IMG/VR virus record: IMGVR_UViG_3300004481_001312
Location: 5,324-69,323 of that record
From: a virus
Lineage: Duplodnaviria > Caudoviricetes
Reading direction: 5' to 3' (one strand)
DNA length: 64,000 bases
The first letter of the stretch is position 1; every line of letters begins with the position of its first letter. The notes under the pieces were generated by a model, which did not search any database, had not been told where the DNA came from, and saw only the letters and a program-made list of their open reading frames with translations. Below are positions 41,363-63,391 of the stretch, one piece after another. Position numbers and translations under genes: made by a program.

Positions 41363-41498
41363 ATCGGTGCCTCCATTGGCTGGTCGTACCTCATAGCGTA
41401 GTTACTGACATTGAAATACACAACTATGAGTTGCGCTTTCGGTAGATCCATCCCCCCGAGTCACGGCCCGGACCACGGCGCTACGGAACCGTGCCTTC

Positions 41499-41705
41499 GT
41501 GTGGGGGGTGGGGGGGTTTTTCTTCTTGGTACTTCTTAAAAGAGGTACTTCTTCTTTTAACGACGGCTGGTTAGGCCCTATGGAGCCGTCGATGGTGCGA
41601 CCTGCGGAAACACCGTGTTCGAGCACGTCACGCCCATTGACGGATTCACCATGCACTGAAAATCCGTCGATGGTGCGACCTGCGGAATTGCTGAAATGTG
41701 GATAA
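41499..41705 (-). promoter_or_regulatory. Origin-like element: near-identical copy of the rep-internal iteron/AT-rich segment plus a DnaA box
   Basis: 41499-41652 is the reverse complement of 48-198 (1 substitution, one 3-nt insertion). 24-bp direct repeats at 41586-41609 and 41664-41687; TGTGGATAA at 41697-41705. Confidence 0.6.
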
Positions 41706-42910: not shown

Positions 42911-43510
42911 ATGACCACCAACGAAACCAGGCAACTCTACTGTGTGATCGACTCGCTACAGAACGACGTCGCGAACCGTGATGCCCTCATCGAGTCACTA
43001 GAAAAGACCATCAACGCACTACACGAGGAGTTGCGCTGCCGTGACGTAGATGAACTGACCGGCATGCACAACCTCCGGTGGCTTAGGGAATTCTGGTCCG
43101 GCCTTCGCCAGCCATCCCAGACGATCGGAGCCGTGGCGTTCATCGACGTAGACCTGTTAAAGCGGGTCAACGACACCTATGGCCACAAGATTGGCAACCG
43201 GGTGATCACCCATGTCGCGGCCGTGCTCATCTCGTCCGGGTGCTATGGCGTCCGGTACGGGGGTGACGAGTTCCTTCTCCTCATTCCGGCCGGCTGGGAC
43301 GCAGCCGCCACCATCAACAAGATCATCGACGAGATCTCGGCGTGTCCTATCCCGACCAGGGACGGTGAGATCACTGTCGTCGTGTCGTGTGGAGCGCGGG
43401 TGGTCAAGGACGACATCGATCTTTACAAGATGATCCATGACGCTGACGTGGCCATGTACGAGGTGAAGCGCGCCCGATCCGGTGCGGCCGGGTGCCGACT
43501 CGTCGAGTAG
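42911..43510 (+). CDS. GGDEF-domain dinucleotide cyclase with N-terminal coiled coil
   Basis: DELTGMHN, FIDVDLLKRVNDTYGH, RYGGDEF, VSCG, ADVAMYEVK; GGAGG RBS. Confidence 0.95.
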   Translation: MTTNETRQLYCVIDSLQNDVANRDALIESLEKTINALHEELRCRDVDELTGMHNLRWLREFWSGLRQPSQTIGAVAFIDVDLLKRVNDTYGHKIGNRVITHVAAVLISSGCYGVRYGGDEFLLLIPAGWDAAATINKIIDEISACPIPTRDGEITVVVSCGARVVKDDIDLYKMIHDADVAMYEVKRARSGAAGCRLVE

Positions 43511-43524
43511 CCGGTCACGGCGGA

Positions 43525-43570
43525 ACGGAACGGCCCGGCCTGGTCACGACGACTGGCCGGGCCGTTCCGT
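43525..43570 (+). terminator. Hairpin after the GGDEF gene
   Basis: ACGGAACGGCCCGGCC-loop-GGCCGGGCCGTTCCGT. Confidence 0.7.
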
Positions 43571-43675
43571 GTAACCCAACAGATAAGTACTCACCATAAA
43601 GTTGCGGATTTATTTGTGGCACGGTAGACTCACGGGGACGCACGAAAACGCCGCGATACACACCGAGGAGAAGCC

Positions 43676-44920
43676 GTGAACCTAGACATCACCACCATCA
43701 GCAACATGTGGGGGGAGTATGGGCACTACGCGATCGTCGCGGCCCTCGGAATCTCCCTCGCCCTCCTCATCGCCACAATCCGACGCGTCACAGGACGCAA
43801 GACCACCACCAAAGACCGTGACGTACTCAGCAACGCCGTTACCCTCATGGTCCTAGCCCTCACGGCCGAGGGAATGTTCTGGGTCCTCACAACCAAGTTG
43901 TCCATGCCCCTTCCCTGGTGGCTCGCAATATTCGTGTGCGCCGTGGCCGAAGGATTGATGGTCAACTTCTTTAGGCTCGCCAAGGACTTCCAAGACCGCC
44001 ACGGCCGGCCCGGACCGTTCGGTACCGCGTTCTGGATCGTCGCCATCGCCGAAGGCGCGATAGTCGCCCTCGCCTCCAACAACATCGTCGAAATCGCCCT
44101 GCGCATACTCCTCCCCCTCGGCGTGGCACTCCTCCACTGGATAAAACTCACAGCCGAGAACAGCGAGGAGAACCGGGGTCAGTTCCTGTGGACCCCCCTC
44201 AACCTCATGATCCGACTCGGCGCGTGGAAGCCCGGGAAAACCACCATCACCGAGGCCGAGGCCAAGAGGTTCGAGGAAAAACTGACGAACGCCGCGTACA
44301 TGCTCGCATCAGCGCGGTGCTTCAAGAATCGCAAACGTCGCAGGGTCCGGAAGATGATGCTCAAGGCCGACCCAACAACCGCAGCATCCGTGATCGCGCA
44401 CCTCGAACTCGCCTACGGCATTGAGGCACGCATCGCGGCCGTCACGAAAACCGGTACAGAGGCAGTCAAGGCCGCCAGCGGAACCCAGACCCCGGCTATA
44501 GATACCACCGCAGGCGTGGATGCACTCCCAGTGGCCACCAACGGCCACCGGGACAACGGCAATCCCGTCCTCGACATCCAGGCAACCCCGGTCAACGGCC
44601 ACCGGCACAATGGCAACCAGCCCGCACTCGCCAGCACACCAGCGCGCAGGACTATGACAGCCCTCGCCATGACCACGGCCGAACGCGACGCTGATATCGT
44701 TATCCGCCACTGGGACGCACTGACCGGCCTTATACAGGCCGGCACCCTGTGCCGATCCGCGATCGAACGCGCGTGCACCGTCGGAGACGACAAGGTGCTC
44801 GCCCGGCAGGCGAAGCGTGTCCTGGACATTATGACCTGCGCGAATACCCTCGACTCTGGCATGTCGATCGAGGAACGGGTTGCCATGGCAATCAAGATGA
44901 TTGCCAACGGACAGAGGTGA
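43676..44920 (+). CDS. Spd/DUF2637-like multi-pass membrane protein (plasmid-spreading type)
   Basis: About five N-terminal TM segments, a WTP..L..RLGA motif and a low-complexity C-terminal region. Confidence 0.55.
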   Translation: MNLDITTISNMWGEYGHYAIVAALGISLALLIATIRRVTGRKTTTKDRDVLSNAVTLMVLALTAEGMFWVLTTKLSMPLPWWLAIFVCAVAEGLMVNFFRLAKDFQDRHGRPGPFGTAFWIVAIAEGAIVALASNNIVEIALRILLPLGVALLHWIKLTAENSEENRGQFLWTPLNLMIRLGAWKPGKTTITEAEAKRFEEKLTNAAYMLASARCFKNRKRRRVRKMMLKADPTTAASVIAHLELAYGIEARIAAVTKTGTEAVKAASGTQTPAIDTTAGVDALPVATNGHRDNGNPVLDIQATPVNGHRHNGNQPALASTPARRTMTALAMTTAERDADIVIRHWDALTGLIQAGTLCRSAIERACTVGDDKVLARQAKRVLDIMTCANTLDSGMSIEERVAMAIKMIANGQR

Positions 44921-44928
44921 CCACCACC

Positions 44929-45068
44929 ACCACGGCCCCCGGTATACCGCCGGGGGTCGTGTTGTATGTCTGGTCTGGAGGATCACCCAGAAGGATGACC
45001 GGTATGGCTTGGATAGCCCTAACGCGTCATGTAGACTATGGGCATGACGCAGAACACGAACACCACCG
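44929..45068 (+). repeat. 140-bp terminator-promoter-gene-start module, copy 2
   Basis: See 30801-30940. Confidence 0.92.
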
Positions 45069-45571
45069 CACGGACCGTCGCCAACCTCACCGCATCGATC
45101 CGACGGACAACCGGAGTCGTCCGCGACAACCACGCACGCGAACTCATCAACCACGTTGGAATCGACCTGGTGTCAATGCTCGTCGGGGCGTCCGACCGAT
45201 ACCACTCCGCCGAGCGCGCCCTGGACGAGGCCGAGGCGACAATGATCAACGCCATGGACGCGATCCACCGGATGATCGACCCCGACCCGGTCCGTAACAC
45301 CAGGTACCTCGTCGAAGCTATCGCGACGACGGCGCGCTGCTACGTGTCGGCCCTAGACGATGGCACCGAGGACGACCGGGCGCGTGCCCGGGAGTTGTTC
45401 ATCGAGGCGACCGGTGACGTCGCCGGAATGATGACGACGACGGAGGGGCGTGCCGAGGTTCCGATCCTGGCCTTCGCCGCTATGTCATCCGCCATGGCGG
45501 AGAGGACCGAACAGGCGACCAAGGACGCGTACCGCGCGATCCAAACCGTGATCAATAACAAGTTCAACTGA
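45044..45571 (+). CDS. Hypothetical helical protein (MTQNTNTT start)
   Basis: TTGGAT-17-TAGACT lies 6 nt before the ATG; hairpin follows the stop. Confidence 0.7.
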   Translation: MTQNTNTTARTVANLTASIRRTTGVVRDNHARELINHVGIDLVSMLVGASDRYHSAERALDEAEATMINAMDAIHRMIDPDPVRNTRYLVEAIATTARCYVSALDDGTEDDRARARELFIEATGDVAGMMTTTEGRAEVPILAFAAMSSAMAERTEQATKDAYRAIQTVINNKFN

Positions 45572-45586
45572 CAACAACCACGACGA

Positions 45587-45613
45587 CGGCCCCCGGCATA
45601 CCGCCGGGGGCCG
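45587..45613 (+). repeat. Dispersed hairpin family copy (inverted)
   Basis: CGGCCCCCGG-CATACCG-CCGGGGGCCG. Confidence 0.8.
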
Positions 45614-45646
45614 ATCCATTGGGTTGTGAGGTACGCCATACCAACC

Positions 45647-46422
45647 CGTACGGCCCGTACGCCCCCCGTACAACCGGTGGGCATACGCGTGTCTGTATCC
45701 CGTACGCCTCCGTACGGCACGCCCCGTACGCCTAAATCCGATCATGGTTATGGGCAGTTTCCCGTACGGCGCGATCCCGACCGTACGGCCAGTACTGGGA
45801 CCGGCGTGCTGACGTACGGGGACCGGCGTACGGCCGTACGGGCCACAAGGGGGCGTACGTGGTGGTTGGTGTACGGAGTCGTACGGGTATTGGTGTACGT
45901 GGTCGTACGGGATCGTGGCGTACGGTCAGACCGCCGTACGGCCTCCCCGTCCGTACGGACGTACGGCCCGTACGCTGGCCGGTTTCCATACGCTGGTTCC
46001 GTACGGCCTCCCCGTACGCCGATCCCTATATGCCGTGACGCTGGGCCGTACTCCGTACGGTGCCTTGTTGGCGTACGGGTTGTACGGGGACGCAGGGTTG
46101 TACGGCTCGTACGGCGTACCCACCGGTCGGCCCCGTACGGACTGGGCATCGACCGGAGGAGTTCTGGCGTGGTCGTACGGTGTGCGGGCGTGCGTGCCGT
46201 ACGCGGGTCTGTGTACCGGATCCGTACGGCCGGATTCGTACGGGGCGTCAGTCGTACGCGTACGGGCGTACGGGGCGTCAGTCGTACGCGTACGGGCGTA
46301 CGGGGCGTCAGTCGTACGCGTACGGGGTGGTTTGCGTACAGGAGCCGCACGAAGTCGTACGGGTCGAGTCCGTGCGGTCGGGGACGTAGGGGCGTACGTA
46401 CGGCGTGCCCGTACGGCGTACG
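45647..46422. repeat. Dense array of the palindrome CGTACG, including a 3x30-bp tandem repeat
   Basis: About 41 perfect CGTACG by hand count in 776 bp; tandem unit CGTACGGGGCGTCAGTCGTACGCGTACGGG at 46237-46326. Confidence 0.95.
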
Positions 46423-46449
46423 GACAACCAGCAAGCATGACCCCATAGG

Positions 46450-46478
46450 TTGGCTATTTCCTGGCATGCCGGTATACT
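46450..46478 (+). promoter_or_regulatory. SigA-type promoter of the tra-like operon
   Basis: TTGGCT-17-TATACT. Confidence 0.65.
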
Positions 46479-46504
46479 GATTGGAGACCATTTAGGGGGA
46501 GCGC

Positions 46505-46804
46505 ATGACAGAACACCCGAACAACAAGACCCCACTCGACATCAACGAGTTGATCACCGTTCGGACCCCAATGGGCGCACAAATCACCCTATACCGAAAT
46601 TCTCAGTCGTACCGGGTCACTGCTACCGACTGCTATACCCGACGACTCCGCGAACCAGCGACGTTCGTCACCGAGCAGCCCGCCCGTGACCAGGCCCGAG
46701 TCTGGACCCTCGAACTGCTCCGCGACCACACGACGTTCGAGGTCGAAACCATACGCAACGGAACCACCAACCGATACACCGTCGACATGGAGGCAAGAAA
46801 GTGA
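46505..46804 (+). CDS. Hypothetical protein
   Basis: GGGGGAG RBS; GTGA overlap with the next gene. Confidence 0.65.
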   Translation: MTEHPNNKTPLDINELITVRTPMGAQITLYRNSQSYRVTATDCYTRRLREPATFVTEQPARDQARVWTLELLRDHTTFEVETIRNGTTNRYTVDMEARK

Positions 46805-47013
46805 CCTCGTCCGTACTCGCCGCGCTACTCGCCATCGCAGCCGGCCTCTACATTTTTTTCTCGTCTAACCGCCTTTCAACCGCCGCGATGGTCATCGCAT
46901 TCATCACACTCGGTTATCTCTCCGGGAACACCGGAACCACGTTCGGCGGTTGGGTCGCCGGAATCGTTTCCGGCGTGACCATGCTCATTGACTGGGTGGC
47001 ATCACTATTCTAA
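46801..47013 (+). CDS. Small membrane protein (Spd-like)
   Basis: 70 aa, almost entirely hydrophobic, in the tra-like operon. Confidence 0.6.
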   Translation: MTSSVLAALLAIAAGLYIFFSSNRLSTAAMVIAFITLGYLSGNTGTTFGGWVAGIVSGVTMLIDWVASLF

Positions 47014-47039
47014 GAGCGCCATCATCTACGCAGTGTTAT

Positions 47040-47162
47040 TGTCAGGGTGTCAGGGTGTCAGGGTTTACAGTCACCCAGACACCCTCCGGACAGCCGCGAA
47101 ATCCCTGGTAAACGGTCTTTCTCAAACGGCCAGTGCACCCTGACACCACTCACCCCAGACAC
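47040..47162. repeat. Cluster of TGTCAGGG / CACCC(T/A)GACAC repeats
   Basis: TGTCAGGG x3 in tandem at 47040-47063; opposite-orientation variants near 47072, 47136 and 47152. Confidence 0.8.
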
Positions 47163-47182
47163 GTCACACACAGTGAGGAACG

Positions 47183-48586
47183 ATGACTACGTCAACACCA
47201 CCACCGACCCCTACCGCGCCAACATCAACCCAACCGGCCCCACCACCGGCCCAACAAGCACCGACAACCCAAACCGAAACCCTCAAACCAACTACACAAC
47301 GTCGCCGTCCAAAGATCAACCGCGAGACAGCGATCGTGATAGCCCTGGTCGTAGCCACGGCCGAGCTCGCCCTAGTCGCGGCCATCGGATCCTGGGCACG
47401 GTGGCTCATCATCCATGCCGCAATCGCCGTGATCGCCCTGATCGTGTTCCTCGCCAAGTTCGGACGGAACCGCAGACGCGCCACCGGCAATGGCACTGGC
47501 GGAGGCCGGGGACGTGGACTCGCAGGACTCCTCGGCGGACACGGCCGGGGCAACGTCCGGGGCAACGGCAACGGCACTGGCGGAGGCCGGGGACGTGGAC
47601 TCGCAGGACTCCTCGGCGGACACGGCACCGGAGCTGGCGGAGGCCGGGGACGTGGACTCGCAGGACTCCTCGGCGGACACGGCCGGGGCAACGTCCGGGG
47701 CAACGGCAACGGAAATGGCAATGGCACTGGCGGAGGCCGGGGACGTGGACTCGCAGGACTCCTCGGCGGACACGGCCGGGGCAACGTCCGGGGCAACGGC
47801 AACGGCACCGGGACCAACTGGGGAAGTCGTGGCAACGGACTCGGAGGACTCTTCGGAGGCACCGGAGGCGGACACGGAACCGGAGCTGGCGGACACGGAA
47901 CTGGACGTGGCACCGGAGCTGGCGGACACGGAACTGGACGTGGCACCGGAAGACACGGAGGAGGCCTCGACCTGTTAGGCCACGGTGGCGACAAGGACAG
48001 TCACGGCCTCCTCGCCAGCACCTTAGGCGAAATCAAGAAGGGCTGGAACGCAGCCGCCACTAAAGACAAGGAGGATCCCGACACCGAATCCGAACCCGAC
48101 GACATCGAACCCGAACCCGACAACACCGAAGAAGAACCGGCCGGCCAGGAAACGCCAGACACACCGGCCACATCACAAGGGGAATCAACCAAGATGGTCA
48201 AGACACAAGGAACTCCGAGCCTCCAAGCGTGGGGACGATGCCTCCCATCCGTCGAACAAGCCCTGCTGGAAAAGCAGCGCGAACTCCGGCGCGTCGAGGC
48301 AGACCTGGAAAACATCGCCGAGGCAGTATCACGCCTCCATAACCAGGGCGAGCAAGAACTGCCGGCCTCGCCGAAACTAGTCGCCCTCCTAGCCGACGTC
48401 CAGGCGTCCCTGAACAGACTTCCACTGGTGTCCGAAGTCATCGGAAAAATCGCTAGCAACGCGAACGCGCTCGCACCGCTTTACCGCACCGAACACACCG
48501 GAGACGAGGACCGACTTGCCGGTATGCGTGGTGGTGTCGAGCGGGAAAAGCGCTCCGACGTCGGAGAAGCACAAAAAGACACCTGA
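47183..48586 (+). CDS. TraA-like protein: two TM segments, Gly/Arg-rich repeats, helical C-terminal domain
   Basis: GGGRGRGLAGLLGGHG x4; C-terminal H..DE.RL...RGG..EKRSDV; directly upstream of traB. Confidence 0.55.
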   Translation: MTTSTPPPTPTAPTSTQPAPPPAQQAPTTQTETLKPTTQRRRPKINRETAIVIALVVATAELALVAAIGSWARWLIIHAAIAVIALIVFLAKFGRNRRRATGNGTGGGRGRGLAGLLGGHGRGNVRGNGNGTGGGRGRGLAGLLGGHGTGAGGGRGRGLAGLLGGHGRGNVRGNGNGNGNGTGGGRGRGLAGLLGGHGRGNVRGNGNGTGTNWGSRGNGLGGLFGGTGGGHGTGAGGHGTGRGTGAGGHGTGRGTGRHGGGLDLLGHGGDKDSHGLLASTLGEIKKGWNAAATKDKEDPDTESEPDDIEPEPDNTEEEPAGQETPDTPATSQGESTKMVKTQGTPSLQAWGRCLPSVEQALLEKQRELRRVEADLENIAEAVSRLHNQGEQELPASPKLVALLADVQASLNRLPLVSEVIGKIASNANALAPLYRTEHTGDEDRLAGMRGGVEREKRSDVGEAQKDT

Positions 48587-48613
48587 CCGACCCAATCCAG
48601 AGAGGAGGACGCC

Positions 48614-50857
48614 GTGAAACACCCCACCACAAAAACAACCAGCCACGTCCCGTCCTACGCGTTGATCGGCCTCCTCGGGCCGGTCGTAACGGCACTCGCC
48701 TGCCAGACCATCCCGGGTATTCCGGCCGCAGTACCAACAGCGGCCGGCGTGCTCCTCGCCATCGTCACCTACGCGGCCCGGAACACCCGGTCGACAACGG
48801 CGACCAGGGCCGCCCTCACGGCCCTGTTCGTCGCGGCCGGCTCGATCTGGGCTAGCGTCGCGGCTACGGCCGGGATCACTCCCCTCGGGTGCGTGGTCCT
48901 CGCCGTTGGCGTAACCATCGGAACAATGGTCATGCTCGCCATACCAATTCCACTCACCAAGGAGGAACTCGAAGCGATCGCTGCGGCCGAGGCAGCGGCA
49001 CTCGCGGAGGCCGAGGCTGCGGCTGCGGCTGCCGACCCCAACTATGGGCTTCCAGCTGGCCGGACCAGGCAGGAAGAGACCATGCAGGCCCTACTCCGCC
49101 GTTTGTCCAATACCAACATCTCAGTCGTAAAAATCGAATCGTGGGAGACCCCGGACGACGGCATGGACATCCGGGTGTCCCTAGTTGAGGGAATGGAACC
49201 AAAGGACCTCGTAAACCTATGCGGAAAGATCCAATCAACTCCGCAACTCCGACTTCCGCAGGGATGTGTAGTAACTGTCCTCGACGGGGACTACCAATGC
49301 GAGGCCGTTATACGGGTCATGCTCCGTGACTGCCTCAAGGACCACATCATTTTGGATGAGTACGAGTCGGCAACCCCAGCCTCGATCAATGACCCGTTCC
49401 CACTGATGCGCTCCCCACAGGGCAACTGGTTCACGGTCTGCCTCCGCATCTTCTGCATGATCGTCGGTGGAACCACGGGTAGCGGTAAAACCACCCTCCT
49501 CAACCGGATCATCGCCTATTTGGCGAGATGCACCGACGCGCTAATCTGGGTAGTCGATTTCAACGGCGGCGGACTCGGCGCGCCGTGGAACCGACCTTTC
49601 GAGGAGGGAAAAACCACCAAGCCGATCATCGACTGGTTGGGCGACACCGAAGAGGAATCAGCCGTGATCATGGCATGCGCGAAGGGTATCGCGAAGGGCC
49701 GCAAAACCGACCGCGAATCAGTTCAAATGCGCCGTGACGCAGGCACTAACGTCCTTCCCCTAAGCCCCAAAAAGCCTGCCATCGTCGTCCTCACAGACGA
49801 GGGCGGGGAGGTACGCCAGGCCGCCAACGTCCTCGGCCAGATCGTCTGCTCGCAAATCTCTAGCCTCGCCCAGATTGGTAGGGAAACCGGAGTTCGCGTA
49901 ATAATGTCCGTACTACGCGGTACCGCAGACCTATTGGACAAGGCACTTCGCACCGTGTGTTCCATCCGGGTGTGCCTCCGCATGGACGAGGAAGGCGAGT
50001 ACGACCACGTCCTAGGCCGCAACCCGGGACGTGTACGCCTCATGCACACCGGTTCCGCATGGATCTACCGGACAACACAGGACTACCGGCCAGTCGTCGG
50101 CCGGTCGGTCGATGTTCCCCCCGCGTTCGTCGAACAGCACGCTATCGACTGCGCGAACCTACGACCAGACCTCGACAAGGCCGGTCAGGCCATATGCGCC
50201 AACATCAAACTTACAGACGTGTTCGCCGGACGCGACCCGGGGAACTACGAGGAGTTGTTGGACCACCCGGCGCTCGTCGATGTCACCACCGGAACCGCCT
50301 ACACCAGGCGGCACCAGCGGCGCGCCGAACGCCTCTCCGCGATAGAACGTGGCGAGGACCCCGACAGTCAGGCCGGCCGTCGTACGGCGACCACGGACGT
50401 CCCAACCGCACCACGCGCCAGTTCCGCCACAGCGAGTCTTCTTAACCAGGTCGACAAATTGGGAACTGGTAGGAAATCGGCCCCTGCGGCACGCGCCACA
50501 GCGCCAACAACGACACCGTCCGAAACCGATGTGTTCAATGCGCTGACCAGCGGAAAGCACCTAATGCTCGAAGGGCACTGCCCGATAGACACTACCAACA
50601 CCACTTTCCCGGCATCGGCCCCGACGACCGGGGAGACCATCCCCGACGCGCCAACCACGACGCTCCGCGAGCGCCTCAACCTGATGCTGACCGACATCTA
50701 CCCAAATGGCCTCAAGGCCGGGGAGATCGAGGCGACCCTGAAGGCCGAGGTGTTCCGGTACTCCAGGGGAAATCTGTTCGAGGTGCTGAAGGCCATGGTC
50801 GGGAAGCACGGCGAGTTGGACAAGGTAGACGACCGGTACTACCGGACGCTCGTCTGA
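48614..50857 (+). CDS. traB: TraB-like FtsK/SpoIIIE conjugative DNA translocase
   Basis: N-terminal TM segments, Walker A GGTTGSGKT, Walker B IVVLTDE, LAQIGRETGV, C-terminal winged-helix-like domain. Confidence 0.85.
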   Translation: MKHPTTKTTSHVPSYALIGLLGPVVTALACQTIPGIPAAVPTAAGVLLAIVTYAARNTRSTTATRAALTALFVAAGSIWASVAATAGITPLGCVVLAVGVTIGTMVMLAIPIPLTKEELEAIAAAEAAALAEAEAAAAAADPNYGLPAGRTRQEETMQALLRRLSNTNISVVKIESWETPDDGMDIRVSLVEGMEPKDLVNLCGKIQSTPQLRLPQGCVVTVLDGDYQCEAVIRVMLRDCLKDHIILDEYESATPASINDPFPLMRSPQGNWFTVCLRIFCMIVGGTTGSGKTTLLNRIIAYLARCTDALIWVVDFNGGGLGAPWNRPFEEGKTTKPIIDWLGDTEEESAVIMACAKGIAKGRKTDRESVQMRRDAGTNVLPLSPKKPAIVVLTDEGGEVRQAANVLGQIVCSQISSLAQIGRETGVRVIMSVLRGTADLLDKALRTVCSIRVCLRMDEEGEYDHVLGRNPGRVRLMHTGSAWIYRTTQDYRPVVGRSVDVPPAFVEQHAIDCANLRPDLDKAGQAICANIKLTDVFAGRDPGNYEELLDHPALVDVTTGTAYTRRHQRRAERLSAIERGEDPDSQAGRRTATTDVPTAPRASSATASLLNQVDKLGTGRKSAPAARATAPTTTPSETDVFNALTSGKHLMLEGHCPIDTTNTTFPASAPTTGETIPDAPTTTLRERLNLMLTDIYPNGLKAGEIEATLKAEVFRYSRGNLFEVLKAMVGKHGELDKVDDRYYRTLV

Positions 50858-50868
50858 CCGGTGAACGA

Positions 50869-50899
50869 CGAAGGCCCCGGGATCATCCCGGGGCCTTCG
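50869..50899. terminator. Hairpin after traB
   Basis: CGAAGGCCCCGGG-ATCAT-CCCGGGGCCTTCG. Confidence 0.75.
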
Positions 50900-51215
50900 C
50901 TATGTCGTGTCGCTAGGCTAACGATCCAATCGTTGGGAGATTATCCCAGTCGATCGGTGCTCGGGCCGCTTCTATCCGGCCGGCCGCGTCCAGTCCGGCA
51001 CGAACGAGTACGAGTATCTCCGCCTCGCCGATTCCTGCCAGATGCGCCATGGTCACGGAATCGATGACGCGCTGGCGCTCGCGATCGGTTGTCATACAGC
51101 CAGGGTACGCCTGGGGTATAACATTCGCCATTTGCCTATGATGACAGCCCCGCCACTGACAACACGCCATTATGGCGTATTATGAAACATGGTCAAACCA
51201 ACAGAAAGGACAATA

Positions 51216-52007
51216 ATGATCGACCACACTTACGGAATCGCAGAGGAATCAGGCACCTGGTACATCACCGTAGATGGAGAAATATCCAGGAATATCACCT
51301 ATGTAACATCGAAGTCCGCCCAACGCATCGCAGACAAACTCACCACGGCAAGCAATCTGTGGACCGGCGTCTTCGCCATCGAAACCAAGATCGCGCAAGC
51401 TCTCAAAAACGAGCCATGGCCCTACGGCGCGACGTGCGTCAACCACGGAACAGACACAGACCAGGAATGGATACTCACCGAGCCATACCGCTCAGATGAA
51501 GTCGTTAGACTCGTCAACCCAGATCCAACCGGATACGTCCAAATTAGCGTCTACACCAGGCCGCTATACGAAATAGCATGTCTGGTGGCCGATATCGACC
51601 CGGACACCGACGAATCGATTAGCGCAGAATTCTGCGATTACGGACACGGCCAACTCGTTCCAGAGGACGCTAATCCACCAGAGGTTGTCAAAAGCCGACT
51701 CAACCACCGACGGTCTATCGGAATTCACATCGAGAAGACCATCGAATATGATGCGAGACTCGACCTTCTCGAATCCGCGAAACTCATGATCAATTGTTAC
51801 ACGAGACTTCAATACGCGTCCGCGTGCTCGATCATGGGAACCGCGCTGCTCGAAGACGAACAAGTAATGCTCATCGTCCTACTTGACGTTATCAAGGGAA
51901 TGGGGATGGAACTCGACATTCCCAACGTTCCAAACGATCTGGTAACAACCAATCTCGCCTATAGCCGCGCGGCGGGAATCATTACCGAGAAACACGACGA
52001 CAAATGA
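51216..52007 (+). CDS. Hypothetical protein
   Basis: AGAAAGGA RBS; upstream CTGACA-16-TATTAT with the palindrome ACGCCATTATGGCGT in the spacer. Confidence 0.65.
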   Translation: MIDHTYGIAEESGTWYITVDGEISRNITYVTSKSAQRIADKLTTASNLWTGVFAIETKIAQALKNEPWPYGATCVNHGTDTDQEWILTEPYRSDEVVRLVNPDPTGYVQISVYTRPLYEIACLVADIDPDTDESISAEFCDYGHGQLVPEDANPPEVVKSRLNHRRSIGIHIEKTIEYDARLDLLESAKLMINCYTRLQYASACSIMGTALLEDEQVMLIVLLDVIKGMGMELDIPNVPNDLVTTNLAYSRAAGIITEKHDDK

Positions 52008-52255
52008 CCAACCCAAAAGGATGGAACCTAGCAACGGAAACGAACATCAACCCGATCGTCACGATCGTTGAACTCGTTTCCATCACAGGGCTTAGCCGTT
52101 GGACCGTCCGGGAAATGCTAGTCCGCTACCAGGTACCACCACTCCCAAGAAACGGAACCCGTGACACCATCCGATACCAACGCCAACACGTCCTCTCCGC
52201 TATCGAGTCAATGACCGGAAGAGGAAACAGAAACCGAAGGAGCAAGCAGCCATGA
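52004..52255 (+). CDS. Small HTH protein (excisionase-like)
   Basis: VTIVELVSITGLSRWTVREML..IRYQRQHV. Confidence 0.6.
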   Translation: MTNPKGWNLATETNINPIVTIVELVSITGLSRWTVREMLVRYQVPPLPRNGTRDTIRYQRQHVLSAIESMTGRGNRNRRSKQP

Positions 52256-52800
52256 TGACGCAGACCCATGGCGTGACCGGTCTAGCAATGTGGATGTCCG
52301 GCGACGCACTTGCCCGCGCACTCGGCGCAAACCATCCTTACTACGTGACAATCGCCGGTGCCCTCATAGCGTGGGGTGCCGCGAAGGCACCCGACATCGA
52401 CAACCCCAACAGCCGACCCGGCCGGCAGGTCAACAAACTGATCCCCGGACTTAGCGACATGATCGAATCTGTGGTTGGCCACCGTGGCCTCACCCACTGG
52501 GCCAGCACCGGCATAGCCAACGGAGTAACCCTGGGTGCCATCGCCTCACTCATCAACCCGTCGATGTGGTGGATCGGCCTCGCCGTGACAATCGGCTGGC
52601 TCACCCACATAGCCGGGGACTGCTGCACCTACCGTGGGGTGCCGGCGTACGGTCCGTTCAACCTAGATCCGATCCGCCTGCCATACGGATACCGAATCGA
52701 GTGCGGAGGTCAGATCGAGACCAGAATCGTCTACCCACTGACCGTCGTCTGGGCACTATCGGTGTTCACGACGTCGGTTGCGCTCACAGTGTTCTCTTGA
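52252..52800 (+). CDS. YdjM-like membrane metal-dependent hydrolase
   Basis: TH, PDID, HRGLTH, H..GDCCT..GVP motifs. Confidence 0.88.
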   Translation: MMTQTHGVTGLAMWMSGDALARALGANHPYYVTIAGALIAWGAAKAPDIDNPNSRPGRQVNKLIPGLSDMIESVVGHRGLTHWASTGIANGVTLGAIASLINPSMWWIGLAVTIGWLTHIAGDCCTYRGVPAYGPFNLDPIRLPYGYRIECGGQIETRIVYPLTVVWALSVFTTSVALTVFS

Positions 52801-52814
52801 TAGGTGACCCACCA

Positions 52815-53111
52815 ATGAAAATGATCATTCTTTCGCTTGTAGTGGTCGTCCCACTGATGTTCACCGTTGGTGCCACCATCGGATACCGCGCCGGGCTACG
52901 CCGGAACCAGGCCCTCAGCCTCCGCACCCTCGGCCTGTCCACCACAACCGTCAACCGCTACCGAGACGCTATGCGTCTTCTCAACGGCATGGTCGAGGCG
53001 ACCATCCTCGACGGGCCGTTCGCTGGAAACATACTGACCAGCATCACCGAAACCGAGGCCCGGAGACTCGTCACCGGGTACCGCAACGAGATGGGAATCG
53101 CCAACCGATGA
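52815..53111 (+). CDS. Small membrane-anchored protein
   Basis: N-terminal TM segment; ATGA overlap with the next gene. Confidence 0.55.
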   Translation: MKMIILSLVVVVPLMFTVGATIGYRAGLRRNQALSLRTLGLSTTTVNRYRDAMRLLNGMVEATILDGPFAGNILTSITETEARRLVTGYRNEMGIANR

Positions 53112-54124
53112 ACCGCCACGTACGAACACTCATCGCCCTCGGCCTGGTCGCCGTAGCAGCGTCGACAACGGCCGGGTGTTCCACCCGCGCGAATTCCGAC
53201 GAGATCATCCTGTACTACGCGTCGGGTGCCGGGGAGAACAAGCAGTTCAAGGAGTGCATCAAACCCGGCGAATCCGGGTCGTACCCCATCGACGATGAGA
53301 TCTACGCCCTACCAACTAGCCAGCGCACGTGGAACATCCGGCCGGCCGGTGGCGACTCGAAAGATCCGATCACGTCTGGTTCAAAACCGTCTGCCGACGG
53401 TCAACCAGGACCGTCCGTTTCGGTCTTCGCCACGGCCGACTTCTACCTCAACGTCGACTGCGCCGGGGGTGAGTCGTCCCCAATCGTGCAGTTCTGGGAG
53501 CGAACCGGACGCCGGTACGGAATCGCGTCGGACGGCGAGGACGGATTCGACCAGAAAAAGTGGATCACGATGTTGATGAACACCTTAGTCCCGGCCGAGG
53601 AGAAGGCGCTGCGCGAGCAGACCATGCGGTATCTCGCGGACGATCTGGATGCAAACCTCGGGTCCGTGTGGTCGAAAATCGAGGCCCAGTTGGGGGACAC
53701 GTTCATGGCAGAGTTGAAGGCGAAGCTGGGTGGCGAGTTCTTCTGTGGCACCGGGTACGCCGGTGGCCGGAAGACCACCTGGGATGAGCTGGTCATGAAT
53801 ACGGACGGCACCACGGGGACGCGGAAGGCCGAGGGGACCTGCCCACCGATCCGAGTCTCGATCTCAGACATCAACTTCACTGACGCTGGCATCGCCGAGG
53901 CGCGGAACAAGGTGTATAAGGCCAAGACCGAGGCGGAGGCAGCATTGATCGCGGCACGGGCCGATGTGGACAAGGCCGCCCTGTTGTCGAAGGCCGCGAA
54001 CGACCCTGCGTACCTTCGGCTCAAGGAGATCGAGGCGCAGTTGGAAGCCGCGAAGGCTTGCGCCGCGAACCCGAACTGCACCCTAGTCATTGGCGCTGAC
54101 GGAGTCGAGGTAGGAAAGAAGTAA
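53108..54124 (+). CDS. SPFH/band-7-like lipoprotein
   Basis: Lipobox-like TAGC, C-terminal Ala/Glu coiled coil (AEAALIAA..DPAYLRLKEIEA). Confidence 0.7.
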   Translation: MNRHVRTLIALGLVAVAASTTAGCSTRANSDEIILYYASGAGENKQFKECIKPGESGSYPIDDEIYALPTSQRTWNIRPAGGDSKDPITSGSKPSADGQPGPSVSVFATADFYLNVDCAGGESSPIVQFWERTGRRYGIASDGEDGFDQKKWITMLMNTLVPAEEKALREQTMRYLADDLDANLGSVWSKIEAQLGDTFMAELKAKLGGEFFCGTGYAGGRKTTWDELVMNTDGTTGTRKAEGTCPPIRVSISDINFTDAGIAEARNKVYKAKTEAEAALIAARADVDKAALLSKAANDPAYLRLKEIEAQLEAAKACAANPNCTLVIGADGVEVGKK

Positions 54125-59600: not shown

Positions 59601-59828
59601 ATGCCGATACAGCCGGCACACGACCTCGCTTCTTGACGCCAACCCCGGTGGCGGTTCGGTCGTGACGACGCTTAACCAGGTAACACCGTTGACGGCCGAG
59701 TAGAAGTCCTCGGTCGCGACGAATCGATACCCAACCTCCGACCCGGTGTCAATAACAGTCGACTCCTCGACCAGGGGAACGAACTGGTTCCCGATCACGA
59801 ACGGCTTATAGGTGTCGTATATCGCCAT
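56655..59828 (-). CDS. Large minor tail protein (multidomain)
   Basis: Start MAIYDTY overlaps the tape-measure stop; beta-rich domains, Dit-like region (RDLAWDAIPYVCVRDE). Confidence 0.7.
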   Translation of the reverse strand: MAIYDTYKPFVIGNQFVPLVEESTVIDTGSEVGYRFVATEDFYSAVNGVTWLSVVTTEPPPGLASRSEVVCRLYRHDPLDTCTPLQKLIIPCTAGSGGSIGGGAANRAAAVANPSDPMYVRLTGASQTARFWFGTDSATVADVLNLWHVEIVDVSVIYSISGPFATATTNTMSCGMERQAGPIKRYMDYLVTGPAGSSSITTMKRSRFGELSQFWDSGTNPNTDYLRGPWSYKGDDDTGLYAMSGAGTDDVAVFFETGVGASGDFDIHYVGLQIMYRENYHLVGVGGMDLSGGADIKEGLYTYRCPLMPADSPWAYTGGGGISIISMAKGDSYTITVSRAYSGSMSVSSPVPIPLSLINTVDPHIPGLVGVRITKPTAEGAMPVYSETTDYPAIVMYDASPTLWATEMIPANVNPACHTYEQQMPQALHDGGYFYSEQQIPNDTAGTFVWATFYARASASVNSGLHISQTDGAGTFLGPDGMIDYATWLALPEIVDGWKKVTVAISPVAVLTGAGGVTYWQLWTGSGELLIWEVLGATANHTVTTTGSSSGAVGGYHGESAVANFIGTENYPLDISITLAQEMSVVSNFAVTTATQELTVIDEYCGVTVSTIPSGIVYNHLAWDPVLTAMVSGWAYYEIQRRDTTMDIGVWETIAKITNPYVGEMDDYEARIGVMSSYRIRTVHTTGIEGPWSAEVTSTIPAPGVTGVGVGIGLLVFTSNEDPAANLAYVHIHGDAEESFDFIESGQGSLEPVYGRDYQVSLRPTERGGVTFTRTLLVNKAGIPTGTLDRGFTSLRDLAWDAIPYVCVRDELSNRWLANVSVPSGSIRRQDGRSTHYQVSAVTITEVAGVPYAHDIEIPFLGLASTQNLQRYGSISSCDPLATLEDIDIRVKFIALQGGVGWGFYVFRYYVGPPESWWAFGMSNNDGSEAYFQSLGDDGFFSEELSIPAPIFGQPIWARCVYDHDTGYGFSEATFYSSIDGVTWTTHGTIVAGPAGLVPSTGGVFYVSALESTVVQEMIVIDTATSTTLMSPDFAAQTATTTSFVDAQGNTWNINVW

Positions 59829-62800: not shown

Positions 62801-63391
62801 ACTAACCGATCCTGCGGCAGCCATATCAAGCACACCGGGAAGCGCGGACATAATCTCGGTGGTGTCGAATCCGGCCGTAGCCAACTCGTTCATCGCGTAC
62901 GCTGCCTCGGACGCGCTAAACGCAGTCGTAGAACCAAGGTCAATCGCCAGGTTGCGGAGATTCGTGAACTCTTTCCCGCTAGACTCCGTCGCGGCCTTGA
63001 CTTTATTCATCGCTTTTTCGAAATTTCCGGCAGCGTTCATGGTCGCTACCCCGGCGATGGCGACGGGTAGGCTAATCGCCGTCGACATCTGATCACCAAC
63101 GTTCGACATCTCGCGACCAGCGGTCGCGAACGATGCGGCCATGGACTTCCCAGCCGTAGACGAACGTTTGGAGATCGTTTCAAACGTCTCCCCGGCCTGG
63201 TTCCCCAGCCGTTTTAGCTCCTGGTTCGCCGCGTTGACCCCATCACGGACGCCGTTCGAGATTTGGTCTGAAACCCCGGTCATGTCGATACGGACCCCAC
63301 GGAGCGCAGCGTTCAAGTCCCGCTGGAACGTCGCGGCGAATTTCGAGAAGTCCGCTAGGACCTCAACTGACGCCTGACCAGATCTCGCCAT
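59828..63391 (-). CDS. Tape measure protein (TP901-type core)
   Basis: 1187 aa; FEKAMNKV, DLGSTTAFSASEAA, LGETFKYVGPVA, GIKGSEAGTAL; long amphipathic Trp-periodic region; FSPAKEGPLSG end. Confidence 0.95.
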   Translation of the reverse strand: MARSGQASVEVLADFSKFAATFQRDLNAALRGVRIDMTGVSDQISNGVRDGVNAANQELKRLGNQAGETFETISKRSSTAGKSMAASFATAGREMSNVGDQMSTAISLPVAIAGVATMNAAGNFEKAMNKVKAATESSGKEFTNLRNLAIDLGSTTAFSASEAAYAMNELATAGFDTTEIMSALPGVLDMAAAGSVSLAEAAEIAGNILNGYGLKTSKIGWVNDILARAFLSTATSLKDLGETFKYVGPVASSAGVSFTELSAAIGLMGNAGIKGSEAGTALRGAISRLLKPTGEIGTTLKALGVAVVDSSGKLLPLIDIVRQLEKSGADTADMMTIFGLEAGPAMQALVSQGSTALGQLTLELQNAGGTAQKVATTQMAGFNGSMDELTSAAEGLMIAVGDAGLLGWMTALTDKLTELTMNASKLSPTFLKIMTVVAIVAAAIGPFLAVFGRMATAIGEGILAFKKFGTWALKVAPWLSALSGPVGWVIAAIVALGIAAVVAYQKCEAFRAVVDRAFRAVATAAMWMWQNAIVPAFNWIVANAKVVGAAISRLWQQAQPVFVAWGAAVMRIWNSAIKPALVAIGNSFKSAGSAISGFWTGTAQPALTSLMGLFARVAVAVRSWWSGNGDTVMRAAAAVVTWFGSVAFQVWSAFMAVLKAVAAVVTWVVVNVLIPAFKAIVAVIKTVVDVIVAMKPVWVVLGAIIVAAVVVVIAIVKVLWAVITTVFTAIGAIIKWVWSTIIVPVFTGIGSAIQVVAGVIQWLWSSIIQPVFNVIGTVLGAVGTAIIWLWSSVFVPAFQGIGAVVSWIWSSIIQPVFKFIGAAIGVVVSIAMWFWNTFSPIFMAIGNLMWTVWSGTISVVFDLLKLAFAAVWAVVQLWWANLKLNFMLVAGIFMWIWNSIASPILTALGALFGWLWGVIQPVLSAIGEMFTWLWTNAISPFATGFAAILTWLWGVVVAIFNSIVTAVRTQIGYIVQAASLLTSFVNSISSYFQMVVNAIRDKLNTAISFVRALPGQIIGAVGNLASLLYGAGQNVINGLINGISSRIGALRAKISDAAQTIRNALPFSPAKEGPLSGNGDPTIAGGKIVTMVAAGMEGRVPKLRAAAWGLADAALTAPAGGLAGGLAPIAGNLSGGSSIVFQPGSINVSFQGVVPTTAQATSTGAAVGQGIAAELNRSKTATLVRSI

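Follow-up and report, generated by a model that had tools for sequence, protein, structure and literature searches.

Why should a tailed phage carry, beside its tail genes, a membrane-anchored FtsK/TraB-type DNA translocase together with repeat arrays and further membrane proteins? The question is raised by a block located at 42.9-50.9 kb of the window, that is, of the whole 64,000-nucleotide stretch analyzed. A first-pass annotation had taken this block for a domesticated TraB-type conjugation module, by which the phage could also spread as a plasmid-like prophage. Our main finding, drawn from sequence comparison, is that the block is most probably a native, conserved accessory arm of an uncultured siphophage lineage, in which the annotation's conjugating prophage finds little place.

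The contig is a metagenome assembly, 87% complete, and a close relative, G002 (96% complete), served for comparison. The block, which runs from a GGDEF gene to the translocase gene, sits inside a near-complete tailed-phage genome encoding TerL, TerS, portal, MuF, TMP, a tail protein, major head, major tail and endolysin, so that the head, tail and lysis genes claimed at first reading are indeed there. Its gene order beside the tail genes recurs in independent contigs (L006/L056, L007, L032 and L033), and at least five independent contigs, obtained from different samples, show both junctions, one joining the minus-strand early genes to GGDEF and the other joining the translocase arm to the end of the tail genes. 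Because of this shared synteny, the block is not a mis-join. The contig is an assembly without end repeats, and related assemblies do break at repeats, but the common junctions, and a block built with the phage's own cassette, hairpins and terminators, make a separate conjugative element mis-joined to the phage, the refutation that the annotation had itself suggested, practically negligible.

These phage-own elements, which the annotation had also recognized, were all present by repeat and hairpin comparison. The two copies of the 144-nt portable cassette form inverted repeat I2 and are 96% complementary; the copy in the block contains a terminator-like hairpin (44931-44961) and, together with a hairpin-family copy at 45568-45613, flanks the gene of a 177-aa protein. 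The latter had no homologue in L007, L032 or L033 (tblastn of related loci) and no family match in Pfam, PHROG or NCBIfam. The GAAGGCCCC hairpin has 7 matches against 0.6 expected, and hairpins of this type also lie 3' of the endolysin gene and of a 338-aa gene. The phage is one of soil and of filamentous actinomycetes; chromosomal relatives point to Micromonosporaceae as the probable hosts. The GGDEF gene, array, promoter, small membrane protein, 8-bp repeats and 747-aa TM-FtsK-wHTH protein listed at first reading were all recovered (Table 1).

Table 1. Features of the block, with positions in the window
Feature	Position	Strand	Remark
Stand-alone GGDEF diguanylate cyclase, 203 aa	42899..43510	+	First gene of + strand arm
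414-aa multi-pass membrane protein, C-terminal helical HTH-like domain	43676..44920	+	Candidate array binder
144-nt portable cassette with a hairpin, a promoter-like site and the first codons	44925..45068	+	Second copy 30801-30944
177-aa protein, lineage-specific insert	45038..45571	+	
CGTACG palindrome array, ~800 bp	45620..46430	.	41 perfect copies plus variants, 3x30-bp tandem unit
Promoter-like TTGGCT-17-TATACT	46450..46478	+	Consensus scan; 5' of 99-aa gene
99-aa soluble protein, lineage-conserved	46505..46804	+	
70-aa hydrophobic two-helix membrane protein	46801..47013	+	Start overlaps 99-aa stop
GTGTCAGGG-type 9-mer cluster	47039..47162	.	3 tandem forward then 3 reverse, around conserved spacer
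467-aa partner protein	47183..48586	+	Directly 5' of translocase
747-aa membrane-anchored FtsK/TraB-type dsDNA translocase, C-terminal winged helix	48614..50857	+	
GAAGGCCCC-type hairpin terminator	about 50869..50899	+	Operon end after translocase

The cyclase matches Pfam PF00990 at 3e-23, as well as TIGR00254, and its RYGGDEFLL motif is unbroken; a GGDEF gene occupies the equivalent position in L007, L032, L033, L056 and L057, and another lies near the translocase cassette of an S. longwoodensis plasmid. For the 414-aa protein, AF2 predicted five long N-terminal helices (5-164), disorder at 270-330 and a confident C-terminal bundle (334-410). All 37 of its relatives are metagenomic. The Spd/DUF2637-like membrane protein of the first-pass annotation is thus present as a multi-pass membrane protein, but the DUF2637 label did not hold: the DUF2637 HMM gave no match to it (1 of 16 family members at E=0.1), hhalign against pIJ101 SpdB and DUF2637 proteins was not significant, and neither Pfam, PHROG and NCBIfam nor a fold search returned a match. 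ESM Atlas neighbors, which include DUF2637, SpdB_N and HTH_SpdB_C clusters at 0.84-0.91, provide a weak lead to such an identity. One helix of the protein reads DKVLARQA in all CGTACG-array loci and YRVTARPA in the sole CGTCCG-array locus, a covariation with the array motif that represents one switch event.

The array itself stands out clearly, with 41 CGTACG copies in 45600-46440 against 0.27 expected and 29 in the other 68 kb; the tandem unit was detected by TRF. Relative to the overlapping ORF, the CGTACG copies are spread over the three phases (17/7/17), and we consider the array to be probably non-coding and a candidate protein-binding array. At the equivalent position, CGTACG arrays are found in L007, L032, L033 and L057, and a CGTCCG array in L006/L056; the window array can be aligned at 75% to that of L032 and has nothing but the motif in common with that of L007. 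Arrays of other motifs adjoin translocase relatives in P1312 (~800 bp of CCGGTCC), L035, L041-L043 and pSQ10 (9 CGTTAC directly 3' of the translocase gene), those of L035 and L043 lying within the membrane-protein gene itself. The promoter noted at first reading is kept too, as a near-identical sequence in the equivalent place in L006 and L007.

Homologues of the 99-aa protein, with 55-90% identity, occupy the equivalent place in L006, L007, L032 and L033, which also encode homologues of the 70-aa protein; the former had no family match in Pfam, PHROG or NCBIfam. Two small genes likewise lie 5' of the partner gene in an M. costi prophage and in pSQ10. The repeats that follow consist of three tandem TGTCAGGG at 47040-47063 and three inverted copies extending to 47162, so that 6 of the 26 GTGTCAGGG matches of the 69-kb contig (1 mismatch allowed) fall in about 124-125 bp. 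A matching layout exists just 5' of the partner gene in L032, L033, L006, L007, L035 and L037, the cis sites being kept across translocases of just 37-86% identity. Analogous direct-plus-inverted repeats with a different motif are present in the M. costi prophage, and the S. longwoodensis plasmid has CGAGGCGA, 4 forward and 2 reverse, 5' of its partner gene. The reverse-strand core of the cluster, TGACACC, is the DC1 repeat of the pWTY27 clt, which is footprinted by TraA (PMC3583192). The cluster is a candidate clt or loading site, or else an operator: L037 retains it although its predicted wHTH has another recognition helix than the window's, and this would suit an operator, or a site for another protein, as well as a clt.

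The partner protein combines a Pro/Thr-rich N-terminus, hydrophobic helices, Gly-rich tandem repeats and a conserved C-terminal domain. Its family profile also picks out, directly 5' of the translocase, a gene of the M. costi prophage (4e-20) and one of P1312 (2e-6), and the C-terminal motif (A/G)P-hydrophobic-(Y/F/I)-R-x-x-H-x-x-D is common to the upstream genes of plasmid, Hiyaa and Galactica translocases. The annotation had called it TraA-like; the gene is where it was placed, but the label is positional and, like Spd/DUF2637, stands on position and architecture rather than on demonstrated homology to named proteins. The translocase matches phrog_31069 at 3e-45 and gave no match to Pfam FtsK_SpoIIIE. 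Its predicted structure (AF2, pLDDT 81) comprises four helices (12-109), a motor domain, disorder at 587-680 and a wHTH (684-744), as the first reading had it. Foldseek retrieved the FtsK motor (2IUS/6T8O) at E~1e-16, then TcpA, and the family profile found FtsK in the PDB at 2e-11; Walker A GSGKT and D395-E396 are invariant. The protein is as distant from the characterized pIJ101 Tra (36-39 bits) as it is from EccC and chromosomal FtsK, and the term 'TraB-type' therefore rests on plasmid context.

This context is broad. Cultured phages (P1312, Hiyaa and Galactica), a Micromonospora prophage and 24 IMG/VR contigs also carry the partner-translocase cassette, which is homologous to a two-gene cassette of small actinomycete plasmids carrying GntR and NUDIX genes; such plasmids hold the nearest non-phage relatives of the translocase. 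On A. graeca pAGRA3207_2 (16 kb; GntR, NUDIX) the cassette gene is the sole FtsK-annotated or translocase-matching one among 15 annotated features. The cassette is accompanied by GntR on pSQ10, by GntR, NUDIX and ParA on pTH1, and adjoins DUF2637 genes on the S. longwoodensis and S. mobaraensis plasmids. For this subfamily, plasmid or phage, we found no transfer test in the searchable literature, nor experimental transfer data for the cassette plasmids. In the tree, pIJ101 Tra and chromosomal FtsK fall outside the in-group, within which plasmid and phage rows are intermingled: P1312 joins pAGRA/pTH1 at 99 and L043 joins pSQ10 at 98. The window's clade consists exclusively of phage, prophage and chromosomal (probably prophage) copies; as it has no plasmid member, the function of the translocase may have diverged. 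The phylogeny that the first-pass annotation had proposed supports kinship with plasmid cassettes, not chromosomal FtsK. The cassette has passed between plasmids and phages several times and is long established in phages, which makes 'domesticated' a doubtful description.

We propose a role for the cassette in phages, and give roughly even odds to the block being a TraB/Spd-like apparatus by which phage DNA passes from one hyphal compartment to another. This apparatus would comprise a hexameric-type FtsK/TraB pump, its constant partner, the two small proteins, the 414-aa protein, the GGDEF cyclase and two cis sites. The 414-aa protein would bind the ~800-bp array and tether replicating phage DNA to the membrane or a cross-wall; the translocase would load at the GTGTCAGGG cluster and pump double-stranded phage DNA to adjacent hyphal compartments, perhaps to touching hyphae. 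One infection could then spread mycelium-wide, virions not being needed, while the cyclase would raise c-di-GMP and the host would stay vegetative. Architecture, fold, homology to the plasmid cassette, conservation of the block with both cis sites and the single array-helix covariation were observed; we infer which protein acts at each site, in which direction DNA is moved and what biological role this has. The novelty lies in testable cis-site predictions, the general idea having precedents in pZL12 and in the speculation on Spd homologues in actinophages (Thoma 2015).

Closest to the first-pass annotation would be a non-integrating plasmid-like prophage that also transfers between mycelia by TraB-type conjugation, like pZL12. 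No integrase was found in the contig, as the annotation had noted, so any lysogeny would need to be extrachromosomal; an ORF of 348 aa shows weak similarity to a replication initiator (phrog_270, 2e-4) and has an internal ~170-bp segment that recurs at 41491-41674, and the CGTACG array could act as a centromere. However, initiators with an origin inside the gene are commonplace too in the lytic replication of lambdoid phages. The contig contains no tyrosine or serine recombinase; a ParA-type ATPase, an integrase, GntR or a recognizable repressor was found neither there nor in G002, and the 47 other ORFs scanned include no GntR, again as annotated, and no NUDIX. A ParB-like match came only from a DNA methyltransferase, in its N-terminal domain. 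pZL12 is missing from the translocase's phage matches (tblastn, phage collection), and more distant relatives belong to an integrated prophage, or to a contig that has an integrase of its own. With no integrase, ParA, GntR or NUDIX found, the conjugating plasmid-prophage is not supported, and we hold it to be unlikely.

Vertical carriage could be served instead by a segregation device, in which array, membrane DNA-binding protein and FtsK-like pump deliver phage DNA to spores or daughter compartments and not to new cells. Pumps of the FtsK family move DNA through septa as these close, and a large palindrome array adjoining a promoter resembles a plasmid centromere. DNA segregation was proposed by the authors of P1312 (PMC4569894), and SpdA2/sps of pIJ101 acts on segregational stability, not transfer (PMC4170104). 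Yet the nearest non-phage relatives lie in GntR/NUDIX plasmid transfer operons, lysogeny functions were not found, and the cyclase would be expected, from BldD biology, to delay sporulation; such a device thus seems improbable. We rate as very unlikely that the translocase targets other DNA or the host, by superinfection or plasmid exclusion or by disturbing host chromosome segregation and development, with the repeats as operator only. PHROGs does place the family under 'moron, auxiliary metabolic gene and host takeover', Streptomyces phage papers tie FtsK-like phage genes to host development (PMC13587820), and the GTGTCAGGG cluster has an operator-like position and is retained though the wHTH helix varies; unexplained, however, would be the constant partner gene common to plasmid transfer operons, the motif arrays accompanying the gene in many lineages, and a wHTH typical of site-specific loading.

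Transport between hyphal compartments, the reading that we prefer, invites comparison with known systems. In TraB-Spd systems (pSVH1, pIJ101, pWTY27; PMC4447253, PMC3583192), the motor is likewise FtsK-like, anchored in the membrane and equipped with a C-terminal wHTH; small and multi-pass membrane proteins are encoded in an operon whose starts and stops overlap, and short direct and inverted repeats adjoin the genes, the footprinted pWTY27 repeat being the reverse-strand core of the window cluster; SpdB2 (409 aa, four TM helices) resembles the 414-aa protein in size and membrane topology. In contrast, the window translocase belongs to a distinct subfamily outside Pfam FtsK_SpoIIIE, always with a large upstream partner; GntR TraR/KorA, NUDIX Pif and any HMM-level link to named Spd proteins are absent, the carrier is a tailed phage, and the array has ~40 copies, not 2-9. 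The plasmid cassettes (pAGRA3207_2, Nocardiopsis pSQ10, Thermobifida pTH1, S. longwoodensis, S. mobaraensis) share the translocase subfamily over its full length, the C-terminal domain in the gene directly 5' and adjoining short repeats, with two small genes before the partner in pSQ10 and, in S. longwoodensis, genes for a DUF2637 membrane protein and for GGDEF close by; identity is only 25-31%, however, and these plasmids have GntR, NUDIX, ParA or relaxase, absent in the window.

Isolated actinophages (Thermobifida P1312 ORF63/64; Streptomyces Hiyaa, Spocter, Keanu, Galactica; phrog_31069), all tailed phages of mycelial actinomycetes, have the same subfamily and partner gene, and P1312 a short-motif array of similar length beside it; 'DNA segregation' or host development have been suggested as roles of their FtsK/SpoIIIE-like genes (PMC4569894, PMC13587820). 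Identity is ~30% and flanking genes differ, P1312 has a serine integrase whereas none was found in the window's contig, and the window lineage adds GGDEF, the 414-aa protein, the CGTACG array and the GTGTCAGGG cluster in fixed order. The plasmid-phage pZL12 (Zhong et al. [quoted passage not shown] SpdA2, a spread-region protein of the plasmid pIJ101, binds short palindromes situated within its gene or next to it (PMC4170104), and the motif arrays of L035 and L043 are placed within the membrane-protein gene. In detail, sps is a 12-bp palindrome in 1-3 copies and SpdA is small and soluble, whereas the window has a 6-bp palindrome in about 40 copies and, as candidate binder, a 414-aa membrane protein.

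The window covers bases 5324 to 69323 of a linear IMG/VR viral contig of 69,323 bp, which has a G+C content of about 60% and a CheckV completeness of 87%. The large terminase and portal genes (see table) share the minus strand with genes for a MuF-like protein and a large head protein. Major head and major tail protein genes lie in the 5.3 kb left of the window, and the tape measure and tail protein genes are found at its right end. The contig also encodes a small terminase, an endolysin, a ParB-domain methyltransferase, a Cas4-type exonuclease and a RecT-like protein. Together these genes mark it as a tailed phage, as the first-pass annotation had it. Because head and tail genes occupy the left end and tape measure and tail genes the right, the virion module wraps around the contig ends; the phage genome is circularly permuted and close to complete. 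A close relative, G002, measures 77.5 kb (96% complete), and the block of interest, at 42.9-50.9 kb, is embedded in a virion-encoding genome of roughly 70 to 77 kb. Plus-strand genes, including one for a rubrerythrin-like protein, separate the small- and large-terminase genes. At the contig end, within the tail-gene region (window 63799-64000), three to four copies of a 32-nt tandem repeat probably explain why the assembly stops there.

Coordinates of features discussed in the text (positions are those of the window unless another record is named)
Feature	Position	Strand	Remark
Portal	12623-14785	-	
Large terminase	15399-17228	-	
ParB-domain DNA methyltransferase fusion	23748-25091	-	phrog_498, 1e-118
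Small-terminase homologue	25637-26281	-	8 kb from the large terminase gene
Partner, 467 aa	47183-48586	+	directly upstream of the translocase gene
Translocase, 747 aa	48614-50857	+	
Five genes downstream of the translocase	51189-54124	+	reach the convergent end of the tail genes
Tape measure	59828-63391		right end of the window
348-aa ORF	-349 to 697 (L031 4974-6020)		weak replication-initiator match, phrog_270, 2e-4
651-codon ORF of phage Hiyaa (L002)	6633-8588	+	spans gp100 and gp101; ends in the partner-protein domain

Every element that the first-pass annotation had listed in the block was located in the sequence. The GGDEF gene is confirmed (Pfam, 3e-23), with its GGDEF motif intact; a promoter-like TTGGCT-17-TATACT is near-identical in relatives; a 99-aa protein and a hydrophobic 70-aa protein are encoded; and the 144-nt cassette, the hairpin family and the GAAGGCCCC terminators are common to other parts of the phage. 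The possibility that the block is a separate element mis-assembled onto the phage can be excluded for practical purposes, because its gene order recurs in independent contigs. The succession of GGDEF, 414-aa protein, array, 99-aa protein, 70-aa protein, partner, translocase, 272-aa protein, 83-aa protein, YdjM, 104-aa protein, 338-aa protein and tail end is repeated in the IMG/VR contigs L032 and L033, and the same block order is found in a 73-kb ENA contig (L007) and in an 83-kb JGI contig (ends L056 and L006). A shorter Logan contig, L057, holds the first part only, namely GGDEF, the 414-aa homologue and the start of a CGTACG array. At the DNA level, a search with the block against the phage collection gave no match. 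Both ends of the 83,152-bp JGI contig (L056 4540-4780 and L006 1-210) stop within a CGTCCG array, and related short contigs such as L057 likewise end inside theirs; the JGI genome is probably circular or permuted and was broken by the assembler at the repeats. The five genes that follow the translocase encode proteins of 272 and 83 aa, a YdjM-family membrane hydrolase (Pfam, 2e-19) and proteins of 104 and 338 aa, the last weakly matching SPFH/Band-7. Synteny of these genes holds in L006, L007, L032 and L033, and they may be part of the same membrane-directed module.

In the AlphaFold (AF2) model of the 747-aa protein (pLDDT 81), four helices at the N-terminus lead into an FtsK motor, after which come a disordered linker and a winged helix. 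The helices, long and hydrophobic (residues 12-109), form a predicted membrane anchor that aligns across phage and plasmid members; the linker spans residues 587-680, and the C-terminal domain (three helices and a beta hairpin at 684-744, pLDDT 85-93) is preceded and partly overlapped by a weak Fur-like profile match at 655-708. Top Foldseek hits were FtsK motor domains (E~1e-16, TMt 0.64-0.68), followed by the conjugation coupling protein TcpA. A single-sequence search against PDB sequences found nothing, and a family profile, which matched FtsK at 2e-11, was needed beside the fold search. The Walker A residues G291-K292-T293 and the pair D395-E396 are invariant in the family. The protein belongs to the phage family phrog_31069 ('FtsK/SpoIIIE-like'; 3e-45, residues 21-524). 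It is not matched by Pfam FtsK_SpoIIIE (PF01580) at E 0.01 and does not group by sequence with characterised TraB/Tra proteins as represented by that domain and pIJ101 Tra: pIJ101 Tra scores 36-39 bits, no different from chromosomal FtsK and EccC. PF01580 also misses the member in the Micromonospora costi prophage, some relatives having a precomputed hit, so that surveys of AICEs and plasmids built on this domain can overlook such proteins.

A profile built from members of both phages and plasmids covers them over their full length, transmembrane helices and winged helix included; pIJ101 Tra, the chromosomal FtsK of M. costi and EccC reach only 38-48 bits. By tblastn, the phage collection yielded the Streptomyces phages Hiyaa, Spocter, Keanu and Galactica and the Thermobifida phage P1312 (about 30% identity). 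The plasmid collection yielded 32 actinomycete plasmids (25-31%); with pIJ101 Tra as the query, plasmid matches were mostly FtsK genes of unrelated bacteria. A large protein collection held 112 relatives, with metagenomic ones down to about 50% identity and the next, at about 40%, chromosomal in Micromonospora, Verrucosispora, Polymorphospora, Plantactinospora and Actinoplanes; a relative was also present on 24 IMG/VR viral contigs. In M. costi the gene adjoins homologues of the window's terminase, tape measure and one tail protein, which places it in a prophage; as the window's portal has no match in that genome, this is a different prophage with the same module. In a quick maximum-likelihood tree (IQ-TREE, SH-aLRT support; rows L036, identical to the M. 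costi copy, L045, a duplicate of L044, and L048, which is cut, were left out), the in-group stands apart from pIJ101 Tra and FtsK (support 91). The window lineage and the Micromonosporaceae copies form one clade with no plasmid member (100), and another mixes plasmids and phages, joining P1312 to the plasmid pAGRA3207_2 of A. graeca and to Thermobifida pTH1 (99), and the distant locus L043 to Nocardiopsis pSQ10 (98). This branching indicates that the cassette has been exchanged repeatedly between plasmids and phages. The 29-kb linear S. mobaraensis plasmid pDSM40587 (L012) carries two different FtsK-like genes, one annotated as an FtsK/SpoIIIE-domain protein and the other, annotated as hypothetical, of the partner-associated subfamily; both kinds of translocase can thus coexist on one replicon.

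The second constant part of the module is the partner gene, immediately before that of the translocase. Its 467-aa product in the window has hydrophobic helices, Gly-rich tandem repeats and a conserved C-terminus. BLASTP against the upstream protein of the M. costi prophage returned low-complexity matches only; a family HMM subsequently found that protein (4e-20) and, one iteration later, the upstream gene of P1312 (2e-6). The C-terminal motif, (A/G)P-hydrophobic-(Y/F/I)-R-x-x-H-x-x-D, was read directly in the upstream genes of the A. graeca and S. mobaraensis plasmids, recovered by tblastn in T. halotolerans pTH1 and several Streptomyces plasmids, and is also present in Galactica gp98 and a plus-strand ORF of Hiyaa. 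The plasmid contexts are actinomycete transfer operons, with the GntR (TraR/KorA) and Spd genes and, often, the NUDIX (Pif) gene of such operons found among the plasmid relatives. On the 16-kb A. graeca plasmid the cassette occurs together with a GntR regulator and a NUDIX gene, and its translocase is the sole FtsK-annotated or translocase-matching gene among 15 annotated features; pSQ10 runs from GntR through small genes to partner and translocase; pTH1 has GntR, the cassette, NUDIX and ParA; and on a S. longwoodensis plasmid a DUF2637 gene accompanies partner and translocase, and a GGDEF gene lies downstream of them. It is because plasmid cassettes sit in these contexts that the phage module may be called plasmid-type. 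Neither GntR nor NUDIX was found in the window, and a search of the accessible literature found no experimental work on any member of the translocase subfamily.

Two cis elements accompany these genes. The first is a conserved cluster of six GTGTCAGGG-type motifs 1.5 kb upstream of the translocase, made up of three tandem TGTCAGGG and three inverted copies inside 124 bp. Forward copies are followed by a short spacer, one reverse copy, a conserved core of about 55 bp and, shortly ahead of the ribosome site of the partner gene, further reverse copies. This layout is common to the window, L032, L033, L006, L007, L035 and L037, across translocase identities of 37-86%. In the M. costi prophage a different motif, GTCAAYCCCTTGAC, is arranged in the same way, and the S. 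longwoodensis plasmid carries four forward copies of CGAGGCGA and two reverse ones at the same place. In L043, CCACACCC repeats lie immediately downstream of the translocase gene, about 14 copies of CCACACCC/GGGTGTGG being counted right behind it. A BldD-box reading was set aside, since the motifs, judged by eye, do not fit the BldD consensus TNAC-N5-GTNA. The opposite strand of the GTGTCAGGG motif contains TGACACC, which in the pWTY27 clt is a 7-bp repeat shielded from DNase by TraA; the clt repeat of pJV1 is CCGCACA(C/G)(C/G) (PMC3583192). Taken together, these features fit a candidate clt. The predicted recognition helix of the winged-helix domain differs between the window and L037 with the GTGTCAGGG motif unchanged, so an operator, or a site for another protein, is equally possible.

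The second element is an array of 41 CGTACG in 840 bp, against 0.27 expected and just 29 in the other 68 kb. CGTACG arrays stand at the same place in L007, L032, L033 and L057, and a CGTCCG array replaces them in the 83-kb JGI contig. The window's array shows 75% aligned identity to that of L032 and has the motif alone in common with that of L007, and CGTACG falls in all three phases of the overlapping ORF; from this pattern, selection appears to act on the DNA. Other motifs occur beside other translocases: CCGGTCC in P1312, L041 and L042, CGCAGC in L035, CGTACG in L043 and, directly after the pSQ10 translocase gene, nine CGTTAC in 150 bp. The arrays of L035 and L043 each fall within the gene of a multi-pass membrane protein, in several phases, and occupy its C-terminal half (L043 8531-8756 and 9140-9670, CGTACG; L035 4950-5640, CGCAGC/GCTGCG); the multiple phases, and both orientations in L035, point to a DNA motif array overlaid on coding sequence. 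An apparent array in L034 was discarded as probably coding, as it lies within the Gly-rich repeat region of the partner gene.

The winged-helix domain is probably not the reader of the array, since its helix begins with SRGNLF at CGTACG and CGTCCG loci alike; we assign that role tentatively to the 414-aa protein. In the AlphaFold model of this protein, five long helices lie in the N-terminal part, and the C-terminus is a confidently predicted helical bundle, within which the stretch DKVLARQA starts a helix. DKVLARQA is invariant in 15 of the 16 family members, including proteins at 40-86% identity whose readable arrays are CGTACG; the sole exception, YRVTARPA, is the protein of the CGTCCG contig. 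This covariation, which amounts to one switch event, makes the 414-aa protein a candidate array binder. There is a known parallel in pIJ101, whose SpdA2 protein binds palindromes located within its gene or next to it and has an effect on plasmid stability (PMC4170104). The modelled architecture would also fit the SpdB2 type, of about 400 aa, with several N-terminal transmembrane helices and a C-terminal DNA-binding part, encoded beside the translocase. Homology to DUF2637/SpdB, as proposed at first pass, did not reach significance: Pfam assigned no family to the window protein and DUF2637 to one of 16 relatives (E=0.1), hhalign against three single sequences (M. costi DUF2637, S. longwoodensis DUF2637 and pIJ101 SpdB) gave probabilities below 1%, and Foldseek with the AF2 model found no match. 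Among its neighbours in the ESM Atlas are DUF2637, SpdB_N and HTH_SpdB_C clusters (0.84-0.91), which we take as a lead only.

The mechanism that we consider likeliest, and to which we give about an even chance, is that a TraB/Spd-like complex moves replicating phage DNA between compartments. Such a complex would sit at the membrane or cross-wall and pass the DNA into adjoining compartments; the 414-aa protein would tether the phage genome through the array, the translocase and its partner would load at the GTGTCAGGG cluster, and the GGDEF cyclase would keep the host vegetative. In its general form the idea is more tentative, and we judge it somewhat likelier to fail than to hold: phages of mycelial actinomycetes would pass replicating DNA through hyphal cross-walls, and perhaps touching hyphae, by a plasmid-derived dsDNA pump loaded at dedicated phage sites, spreading from cell to cell without virions, and a cognate SpdB-like protein would read the large arrays of short palindromes as sites that tether the DNA to the membrane. 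A segregation or spore-carriage device is an improbable alternative, and a role in exclusion or host takeover, with the GTGTCAGGG cluster as a mere operator, seems to us more improbable still.

The first-pass annotation had favoured a conjugative phage-plasmid, spreading both as virions and as a conjugating plasmid-like prophage. For tra genes on a phage replicon there is a precedent in pZL12, which is reported to have maintenance functions (PMC4487206). In the contig studied here, no tyrosine or serine recombinase, ParA-type ATPase, GntR or NUDIX gene was found, which leaves the plasmid-like prophage without maintenance functions of the pZL12 type and makes this reading unlikely, on a par with segregation. 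Tyrosine and serine recombinases (PF00589, PF00239) were likewise not found in the relatives G002 and G003, G004 having an integrase, and PF13614 ATPases were absent from the whole contig and from all three relatives. Among 47 further ORFs, Pfam recognised only a rubrerythrin/ferritin, an AAA_33/zeta-like kinase, a phage zinc-binding domain and a resolvase-type HTH. The 348-aa ORF has only its weak initiator match; a segment of about 170 bp within it recurs as an inverted copy 41 kb away (41491-41674; 83-97% complementary) and is a candidate origin present twice. Lambdoid phages also have their origin inside the initiator gene, so this ORF does not indicate a plasmid state. Nor does the block resemble an AICE, which unites Int, Rep (RepSA, RepAM or Prim-Pol) and Tra in one small element: it lies inside a large virion genome that has no PF00589 or PF00239 match.

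FtsK-like genes of cultured phages have been annotated and commented on before (PMC4569894; PMC13587820). New here are a translocase subfamily with a constant partner gene and common to plasmids and phages, the recurrent swapping of this cassette between the two, two conserved cis elements with named candidate binders, and the absence of lysogeny and partition genes in the window's phage lineage. Little is understood of how phages exploit hosts that are multicellular and compartmented. Should the module work as proposed, DNA spreading through the mycelium without virions would be a second infection route, and the module a clear case of a transfer machine swapped repeatedly between plasmids and viruses. 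Since the same cassette is present in the cultured phages P1312, Hiyaa and Galactica, the proposal can be tested there by deletion.

Two records of these cultured phages merit a remark. In P1312 (L003), the FtsK-like gene is followed closely by an array of CCGGTCC/CCGGACC of some 800 bp (about 9860-10700). Two overlapping ORFs, 061 and 062, are annotated across this array; one or both are probably not real, or else bear a DNA-level array within the gene. In the Hiyaa annotation gp100 (6831-8159) is a minus-strand gene and the short gp101 a plus-strand one; as the plus-strand ORF carries the conserved partner domain, gp100 was probably called on the wrong strand.
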